Part shown: positions 56,117 through 56,989 of the stretch, in pieces
Layout: every line of letters starts with the position of its first letter
Numbering within the stretch: position 1 is the first letter of the stretch
Source of the DNA: a virus
Taxonomy: Duplodnaviria; Heunggongvirae; Uroviricota; Caudoviricetes
DNA: 64,000 bases
IMG/VR virus record: IMGVR_UViG_3300028585_000514
Direction: 5' to 3' (one strand)
Notes under the pieces: generated by a model
What the model saw: the letters and a program-made list of their open reading frames with translations, nothing else
Database searches by the model: none
Told to the model about the DNA's origin: nothing
Translations under genes and position numbers: made by a program

Positions 56117-56333
56117 AATCTTTGAACCAAGCTCCACGGATGTTGCAACTCACACCCCGTTCGACAGGTACCTATCATTGAACGGTAAAAGTTTGTTGCT
56201 CAACCATATCTCATCGGCTATGGTGTGCCGGCCTTTTACTGTTGCCAGAGAAGCTCAAATTGTGACGATCCACTTTCCTAAACCCATCGCACCTCTCTAG
56301 TCGTGGTGGGTCATTGAAGCTTGGATCAAAAAT
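56117..56333 (-). ncRNA. Putative structured ncRNA, unit A of three tandem homologs
   Basis: Terminal stem ATCTTTGAACCAAGCT/AGCTTGGATCAAAAAT; shares internal motifs with B and C; strand inferred from context. Confidence 0.6.
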
Positions 56334-56355
56334 CTCTTAAAGGTATTTGCTACGA

Positions 56356-56583
56356 AAAAATCTTTAGTCCAAGCTCCGGAGTTTACCCATGGATCATATC
56401 CGGTTACAAAGACATGCATATCTTATGCGTAACCATGTTAGGGACTTAATCACATTTCTTCGGTTGTGATGGACCGGCCTTGGATAGTTGCCTGCAGGGC
56501 TCACCTTGGCGATCATTCTCAGAACCGGTACCGCGGGCTGCTTTACACCGGCCGGTTCATTGAAGCTTGGGCTAAAGATTTTT
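56356..56583 (-). ncRNA. Putative structured ncRNA, unit B
   Basis: 20-bp terminal stem AAAAATCTTTAGTCCAAGCT/AGCTTGGGCTAAAGATTTTT. Confidence 0.6.
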
Positions 56584-56587
56584 CATC

Positions 56588-56883
56588 AAAAAGTATTAGG
56601 GTGAGTTCCACGGAGATTCACTTCCTCATGGCACCTCGTCAGGCGTTGTCCCAATCGGTATAGAATCGTCATCGATATGTATTCGACTGGCTCATATCTC
56701 ACCAGGCCTGCGGTCATGTTTGGCGTCGCGGTGTCCTGTTGTTTCGGGTATATGAGTCGACGAAACTCTCCCTAATCCTCAACACTTATTGACCCAAATC
56801 AATGCCCAGTCTGCATTTCACCTAGAGTCTGAAAGCTTGTTCGTCATTGCAAACAAACTCCGGAACTCACTCTAATACTTTTT
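56588..56883 (-). ncRNA. Putative structured ncRNA, unit C
   Basis: 22-bp terminal stem AAAAAGTATTAGGGTGAGTTCC/GGAACTCACTCTAATACTTTTT. Confidence 0.55.
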
Positions 56884-56989
56884 GATTCATCGCTGATTCG
56901 TTTTGTGTCTCAGCGATGAATGAAATTATATATCTACTCGGAAAAATCAGTAGGAAATTGCACTGGAAAGAAATGCAATAATTTTTCCG

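Follow-up and report, generated by a model that had tools for sequence, protein, structure and literature searches.

The 64,000-nucleotide stretch analysed here (the window) is the reverse strand of G000:C1:53051-117050, part of a 184,871-base IMG/VR virus record (IMGVR_UViG_3300028585_000514). The element in question is an array of three stem-closed units, A, B and C, in a gap of 918 bases between a UDP-glucose dehydrogenase gene (56990-58261) and an open reading frame (ORF) for a 96-aa protein (55781-56071), both on the minus strand. Comparison with related phages assigns the units to two families of structured RNA, termed type 1 and type 2, as follows.

56585-56886, minus strand: unit C, predicted type-1 RNA, 302 nt, with a 25-bp closing helix (inverted repeat, folding and profile)
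56353-56586, minus strand: unit B, predicted type-2 RNA of subtype 2b, 234 nt, pseudoknot core at 56450-56477 (covariance model R1)
56111-56340, minus strand: unit A, predicted type-2 RNA of subtype 2a, 230 nt, pseudoknot core at 56204-56231 (covariance model R1)

No ORF inside the gap is longer than 65 aa, in agreement with a preliminary description, made from the sequence alone, that had seen no credible ORF there; 56111-56886 is non-coding. Inverted-repeat analysis finds arms at the ends of each unit. Those of unit C (56585-56609 / 56862-56886, 25 nt) are 96% complementary, those of unit B (56356-56375 / 56564-56583, 20 nt) 95% and those of unit A (56112-56136 / 56315-56339, 25 nt) 84%, with three of the four mismatches in unit A being G-U on the minus strand. 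The preliminary description had put three such units at nearly these positions and had rightly given them long terminal stems, but the stems are 20-25 bp and not 16-22 bp. Adjoining units are spaced 0-13 nt apart. Each of the three folds with paired ends on either strand, and the folding z-score of the 801-nt stretch is -5.6, again on either strand. Across the entire 185-kb record, a scan for long-range inverted repeats whose arms are 18 nt or longer and separated by 80-420 nt returned five, two of which are in the array, against 0, 1, 0, 0 and 0 in five block shuffles. The array stems exceed chance expectation.

Two RNA families in related phages

Relatives were obtained from protein-database homologues of the 96-aa protein, which form 11 other homologue clusters (56-89% identity) from metagenomic assemblies, and then from the contigs that carry them (L120-L124 and L133-L136). 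Every locus has a gene-free gap of 650-1100 nt upstream of the 96-aa homologue, and this gap holds long-stem units. The adjacency of array and ORF is in part an artefact of the search, since the loci were located through the 96-aa protein. Seven related contigs, all from uncultured phages, have orthologous units at the same site upstream of the 96-aa gene, and the locus is syntenic across related phages. The stem sequences diverge between phages yet remain complementary, so that the compensatory change first noticed between the terminal helices of paralogues in the window is now seen across phages as well.

The type-1 members are unit C, L120:1789-2090, L122:3437-3735, L123:3029-3393, L124:3432-3727, L133:3010-3308 and a partial unit, L134:1-230. 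Type 2 comprises units B and A of the window, one unit each in L120, L122, L123, L124, L133, L134 and L136, together with a divergent unit in L137; it is positioned after type 1 in the loci. Over both families the units are 230-360 nt long. With the covariance model R1, built for type 2, every type-2 unit reaches 128-213 bits when read on the gene strand and 26-39 bits in the opposite orientation (unit B, 188.6 bits minus and 28.8 bits plus; unit A, 205.4 bits minus and 25.8 bits plus), and no type-1 unit is reported. Likewise, the nhmmer profile of each type detects only its own type; the type-1 profile recovers L133 (E 5e-11) and L134 (E 3e-50), both outside its training set. Because neither the covariance model nor the nhmmer profiles connect the two types, unit C is assigned to a second family, without detectable homology to A and B, and A and B are classed on sequence comparison as divergent paralogues of one family. 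The proposal of three homologous units thus holds for A and B and fails for C.

The interior of unit B is closest to the type-2 units of L123, L124 and L133, and unit A is closest to those of L120, L122 and L136. A B-like copy is missing in L120 and L122. The simplest account would be duplication in tandem, with later loss in some of the lineages.

Both families look rare. Neither the region (blastn) nor the 96-aa protein (tblastn) matched a cultured phage among 50,697 phage records. The 96-aa protein, an alignment of it and the dehydrogenase, used as queries in locus searches of viral and metagenome contigs, gave no usable relatives. A pattern scan for the type-1 hairpin over metagenome (JGI) and viral (IMG/VR) contigs gave three matches, all in GC-rich coding sequence and due to chance, and R1 found nothing at these three loci. 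An exact scan of IMG/VR with the 14-mer TCATTGAAGCTTGG was set aside, as its more than 115 matches all lay on unrelated contigs and the pattern is too short. In Rfam 15, scans at gathering thresholds and at E up to 10 gave no match in the region, and no description was found in the searchable literature. Both RNA families are new, as the preliminary description had suspected when it could name no known one, and the novelty is at the level of RNA families, on the basis of about ten metagenomic sequences from one clade.

Covariation and a pseudoknot

The preliminary description had asked for a covariation check, and the internal helices do covary. For type 2, 33 pairs were modelled, 96.1% of them canonical, and 25 of the 33 change on both sides; none of 500 column shuffles reached 25, and slid controls, in which partners were moved by 1-3 columns, gave at most 8. 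The closing helix contributes 18 covarying pairs out of 22. Across the relatives, the stems are 96-98% canonically paired. Within the type-2 core, an invariant CGG followed by C or U (CGGY) pairs with an R-CCG four-mer, with C-G changing to U-A in five of 10 sequences. A 6-bp hairpin is interleaved with this stem; all six of its pairs covary, and it is 93% canonical against 14-37% when shifted. By this comparative evidence the CGGY/RCCG stem and the 6-bp hairpin form an H-type pseudoknot.

The consensus for type 1 has 62 pairs, 91.6% canonical, of which 27 covary (shuffle mean 16, maximum 22; slid controls at most 8). It includes a near-invariant hairpin, GUUUGUUUGC-AAUGAC-GAACAAGC, and a covarying hairpin with a constant GACG loop. 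The covariation indicates that the structures of both families are under selection, and the conserved loops and the pseudoknot would imply a specific partner.

Strand of the RNAs

The RNAs are assigned to the minus strand of the window on the basis of G-U and A-C counts, folding energies, R1 scores, the TATAAT block upstream and gene orientation. In the type-2 closing helix, read in gene orientation, there are 13 G-U cells against one A-C, spread over at least seven columns, and this count is not biased by folding because the helix was delimited from the DNA inverted repeat. The type-1 hairpin gives 8:1 and contains two U-G pairs that are C-G in single lineages; in a plus-strand reading these become A-C mismatches. 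The consensus folding energy is -59.8 kcal/mol on the gene strand and -45.4 kcal/mol on the other, and R1 scores are five- to eight-fold higher on the gene strand. All neighbouring genes lie on this same strand, and the Y-RNA-like genes found in the arrays of relatives match the YrlA model on it too.

The recurring motifs listed in the preliminary description are present (CATATCT three times, TCATTGAAGCTTGG in both A and B, and TCC(AC)GGA), but they had been read on the plus strand, and the 13:1 ratio and the folding energies reverse that reading. Plus-strand CATATCT and CC(G/A)GGCCT are the complement of the type-2 pseudoknot core.

Promoter block and leader

Upstream of type 1, a conserved arrangement of TTCCAGTGCAA, about 32 nt, TATAAT and a conserved leader was aligned in six related loci. 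The corresponding features of the window, with one further conserved element at the 3' end of the array, are as follows.

56958-56968, minus strand: block TTCCAGTGCAA, candidate promoter element about 32 nt 5' of TATAAT (alignment of related loci)
56925-56930, minus strand: TATAAT, a -10-like hexamer within ATATATAAT (direct sequence reading)
56881-56925, minus strand: leader hairpin TTTCATTCATCGCTGA / TCAGCGATGAATCAAA, directly 3' of TATAAT (16-nt arms, 94% complementary)
56080-56098, minus strand: conserved 19-mer CACAAAAATAATAGTTGGA, located 3' of the last RNA and before the start codon (ATG) of the 96-aa ORF (sequence comparison)

TTCCAGTGCAA is conserved in the window, L120, L122, L124 and L133, with variant forms in L123, and such a block in combination with TATAAT has only a handful of occurrences in the 185-kb record; it is a probable promoter element. 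A consensus scan of the minus strand gave no full sigma-70 promoter. TATAAT does not vary among the seven aligned loci, one of which, L124, has its preceding gene on the opposite strand. The hairpin (arms at 56881-56896 / 56910-56925) and the minus-strand TATAAT had both been reported before, together with the suggestion of a single precursor, and the conservation of the promoter block in six related loci makes that suggestion plausible. The sequence of the leader 5' arm is kept in all close and distant loci, and the hairpin proper occurs in the window, L120, L122 and L133. No terminator-like site was found on the minus strand at 55700-57300. The 19-mer is 100% identical in the window, L120, L122 and L123 despite diverged flanks, and nearly so in L133, L134 and L136; judging from this conservation, it may serve in translation start or as a (second) promoter element.

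Outside the window, TTCCAG..TATAAT occurs at G000:C1:138698 and 149493, followed by GC-rich hairpin-like or T-arm-like sequence (GCGTTCGAACCC). A cluster of weak partial YrlA matches lies at G000:C1 136-152 kb, where there may be other small RNA genes.

Gene neighbourhood and the virus record

The genes that flank the array are as follows.

56990-58261, minus strand: UDP-glucose dehydrogenase gene, upstream neighbour (Pfam PF03721, PF00984, PF03720)
55781-56071, minus strand: 96-aa ORF, 3' of the RNA array in every locus (12 homologue clusters, 56-100% identity)

The dehydrogenase gene is syntenic in L120, L122, L123, L133, L137 and two more contigs, and is missing in L124. The 96-aa protein has no Pfam or PHROG family match; it is predicted to be a three-helix bundle (pLDDT 79), for which there was no informative fold match (Atlas, AlphaFold, Foldseek). 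Apart from the dehydrogenase, the neighbours of the array are small ORFs, among them ones of 96, 66, 81 and 171 aa, to which no function is assigned. A homologue of ribosomal protein L33 (PF00471) lies a few kb downstream of the array in three relatives (L120:5624-5842, L122:8084-8254, L124:6257-6427), and in L122 and L124 there is a faint indication of a GIY-YIG-like ORF.

The record is classed by IMG/VR as a provirus, yet it has 29 tRNA matches and baseplate-wedge-like proteins. The tRNA matches lie at window 46714-50723, 236-5606 and 42271-43233, and about 22 of them form a minus-strand array at 46.7-50.7 kb. One record protein is also found on a contig of 348,873 bases, and the record is taken for this reason to be about half of an uncultured jumbo phage. 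Its completeness is 53%, and all the record-wide absences reported below (TROVE, reverse transcriptase, RNase III, RtcB) apply to this 185-kb half-genome.

Two further stem-closed elements were seen in the record. The first, at window 10505-10643, is a 139-nt element with a 24-nt inverted repeat between plus-strand ORFs 10084-10482 and 10686-11099; it folds at -62.1 kcal/mol on the plus strand (z -6.15) and -48.9 on the minus strand (z -2.5), and by these folding predictions is possibly another stem-closed RNA. The second, outside the window at G000:C1:132510-132821, is a 312-nt unit with a 25-nt inverted repeat and with TGGTATAAT upstream inside a hairpin of its own. It holds CAGCCGAUGA, which is like the type-2 pseudoknot loop, and neither family profile detects it.

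Y-RNA-like genes in sister arrays

In L123 the array runs past type 2, and the further units have in common YUGCGUAG..WACUUC as a 5' motif and UUUUAUCUCAG as a 3' motif; several of them also have a GGUUCGAGUCC T-arm. Two of these units match the Rfam YrlA model at 46.8 bits (E 1e-8) and 32.2 bits (E 2e-4), below the gathering score of 69 bits. A TROVE+VWA (Ro60-like) gene follows the array at L123:6086-7651. The gene order dehydrogenase, RNA gap, small ORF, more RNA gaps and TROVE is found in L123, L137 and two further contigs, and the orthologous units of L123 and L137 share a strand with TROVE and sit 2-3 kb upstream of it. The Y motif YUGCGUAG..WACUUC has 3-7 copies, all of them on the gene strand, in each of L123, L135, L137 and L139, and does not occur in the window, L120-L122, L124, L133, L134 or L136. 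These Y-RNA-like arrays of 3-7 genes, beside a TROVE+VWA gene, were located at L123:3645-6039, L135:51-326, L137:6136-8000 and L139:267-1700; counted by motif, this would be an unusually large Y-RNA complement for one locus. The distribution indicates that the Y-like RNAs track Ro60 and that types 1 and 2 do not. The neighbourhood suggests a shared theme of RNA-protein particles.

Model for the array

We favour, with a probability of roughly 0.6, the interpretation that the locus is a minus-strand tandem array of three structured non-coding RNAs of two undescribed families, made as one precursor, released by RNase III and acting in trans. That the array is transcribed, that it is cleaved at the stems and that its products are stable and act in trans are all points we infer from the comparisons above. 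Transcription would start at the conserved block TTCCAGTGCAA ... TATAAT, and the transcript would take in the leader hairpin and all three units and probably extend into the 96-aa operon, because there is no terminator on that strand. Each RNA would adopt a multi-branched fold with its own 5' and 3' ends paired in a helix of 20-25 bp. A double-strand-specific endonuclease, most likely the RNase III of the host, would cut the boundary helices and release each unit as a stable RNA whose ends are shielded by the leftover stem, and the mature RNAs would then act in trans as protein-binding scaffolds.

RNase III requires a duplex of 20 bp or more, and the stems at the unit boundaries, at 20-25 bp or about two helical turns, are of this length. 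The enzyme uses bracketing helices to excise 16S and 23S rRNA; as in rRNA operons and T7 early RNA, the helices of the array bracket the units and abut. The array differs from those precursors in that its RNAs are new families and not rRNA or mRNA, in that no phage RNase III gene was found and in that cleavage is here a proposed step. The Y-RNA-like genes in sister-phage arrays have the same kind of closing stem, 17-29 bp long, which suggests that the long stem could be a lineage-wide excision cassette for RNAs made in arrays. An RtcB gene was also looked for in the half-genome, and none was found.

Several points weigh against this model. The covariation comes from 6-10 metagenomic sequences of a single phage clade, so that the counts are not independent events. 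With no RNase III gene in the half-genome, cleavage would depend on the host. The case is built on sequence, from an uncultured phage with no close cultured relative among the 50,697 phage records. The array is directly upstream of an ORF with no terminator between them, and the second, unrelated long-stem unit (G000:132510-132821) ends 10 nt before an ATG; both of these would fit cis-acting leaders equally well.

Such leaders are the main rival, although on balance an unlikely one. The units would then belong to the mRNA of the 96-aa operon, with their helices serving as RNase III sites or 5' stabilisers that control how long it persists or how it is translated, as in T7 early transcripts or lambda, and would be functionless once released. 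In addition to the two points just given, every locus has the array upstream of the 96-aa gene, but this is the adjacency that partly reflects how the loci were located. Simple processing sites need no conserved multi-branched fold of 230-360 nt with a covarying pseudoknot and invariant loop motifs. The number and order of units vary while the ORF is kept: L120 has one type-2 unit and the window two, and L137 has a lone type-2-like unit and after it Y-like RNAs. Moreover, the relatives carry Y-RNA-like genes, whose RNAs act in trans, at the same positions.

That the units are themselves highly divergent Y RNAs, binding by their closing helix and junction a Ro60 (TROVE) protein from the host or from the missing half of the phage genome and tethering an effector such as PNPase, is less probable again. 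In its favour, the units of L123 and L137 share one array with Y-RNA-like genes, on the same strand and within about 3 kb of TROVE+VWA, and a helix closing the RNA end to end is the architecture of Y RNAs (PMC4201824). The Ro60-binding motif, close to the 5' end in Y RNAs, is GNCGAAN0-1G or GGUCCGA (PMC4201824), to which the junction strings GUUCCGG in type 1 and UUCGAAGG in L136 bear a loose likeness by eye. Scans of window 55900-57100 with E up to 10 matched neither YrlA nor Y_RNA, with the L123 matches as the positive control for YrlA; across the record, YrlA matches are found only in the tRNA array, as cross-hits, or are weak elsewhere. ARAGORN found no tRNA-like gene in 55500-57500, and the units have no T or D arm. 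A Y RNA gene is expected on the same strand as a Ro60/TROVE gene and no more than about 4 kb away; no TROVE gene was found in the 53%-complete record, and the 348,873-base contig carries none of the 120 best TROVE homologues, which is a weak negative. Around 80 other phage TROVE genes, R1 detected no type-2 RNA at distances of up to 5 kb. We do not class units A, B and C as Y RNAs because the lineage Y motif tracks TROVE, whereas types 1 and 2 persist where both are absent. The comparison with the YrlA RNAs (RF02553) that lie beside Ro60/Rsr is similar in outcome: both have a closing helix of their own ends and tandem copies on the gene strand, and in L123, L135 and L137 types 1 and 2 form one continuous array with the Y-like genes near TROVE+VWA, but the array units are two to three times longer, lack a YrlA match, a Ro-type 5' motif and T/D arms, and are present where TROVE and the Y motif are not.

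The preliminary description had likened the units to retron or other defence-system RNAs acting as anti-defence decoys or sponges, or alternatively to self-cleaving ribozymes, which we consider very unlikely. The likeness to these is in general architecture (paired ends enclosing 150-300 nt) and in the phage setting only. Inverted repeats do join the ends of a structured RNA of a few hundred nt in retron msr/msd (a1/a2); the array, however, has no reverse transcriptase near or far, there being no match to PF00078 (RVT_1) in the 185-kb record, and no Rfam msr match, and its three units, which belong to two families, lie upstream of the gene for a 96-aa helical protein. Even at E up to 10, Rfam gave no match to a retron, a ribozyme or any other family. 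The hammerhead core is CUGANGA; the conserved CCGANGA of the units differs from it at the essential U and sits in a pseudoknot loop, not a three-way junction, and was rejected for both its wrong core base and its wrong topology. An RNase P-like sequence, AGGAAAGU, was rejected as well, being confined to subtype 2a.

Analogies with phi29 pRNA, 6S RNA and ToxI were rejected because they extend to architecture only. ToxI of type III toxin-antitoxin systems has tandem RNA units directly upstream of a protein gene in one transcript, as the array would have if it is processed as proposed. ToxI repeats, however, are about 36 nt, near-identical and followed by an endoribonuclease toxin of about 170 aa, whereas the units of the array are divergent, measure 230-300 nt, fall into two families and precede the gene for a 96-aa predicted three-helix protein with no nuclease signature. 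GOLLD and ROOL are likewise large, multi-branched, covarying RNAs of tRNA-rich phage genomes, as the 29 tRNA matches here make this one, but they are roughly 580-800 nt, and the array units are 230-360 nt, tandem and stem-closed, with no Rfam match.

The least probable alternative, which the preliminary description had kept as a fallback, is that the units are DNA-level elements, either remnants of a MITE-like kind or inverted repeats to which a DNA-binding protein attaches, as at an origin or packaging site: terminal repeats of 20-25 bp around 200-300 bp have the dimensions of a MITE, and unit B is present in the window and missing in L120 and L122, but there are no further copies in the genome, the window or the 50,697 phage records, the units are syntenic orthologues and not dispersed copies, their mismatches are strand-asymmetric (G-U and not A-C), the internal helices and the pseudoknot covary, and no target-site duplication was seen around unit B.

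Returning to the favoured model of trans-acting RNAs, a more specific and tentative version, to which we would give much less weight than to the general one, is that types 1 and 2 are two new classes of large phage RNA and form the Ro60-independent core of an RNA-based host-takeover module, in which RNase III-released, pseudoknotted RNAs acting in trans would capture a host protein of RNA metabolism or defence. By analogy with the Y RNA/Ro60/PNPase system of the sister phages, and with another partner in place of Ro60, the captured protein might be, for example, an exoribonuclease or a tRNA-targeting nuclease.

Few structured RNAs of phages have a known role: tRNAs, Y RNAs and phi29 pRNA, along with a small number of large orphan RNAs. 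The locus adds two RNA families of 230-360 nt with strong comparative support, one of them pseudoknotted by prediction, in an array that appears ready for processing and that in sister jumbo phages runs on without a physical break into Y-RNA and Ro60 modules. It is a defined and clonable object for the study of jumbo-phage non-coding RNA beyond tRNA supply. If the units are indeed stable RNAs that act in trans, they would point to an unrecognised RNA-protein machine in huge phages.

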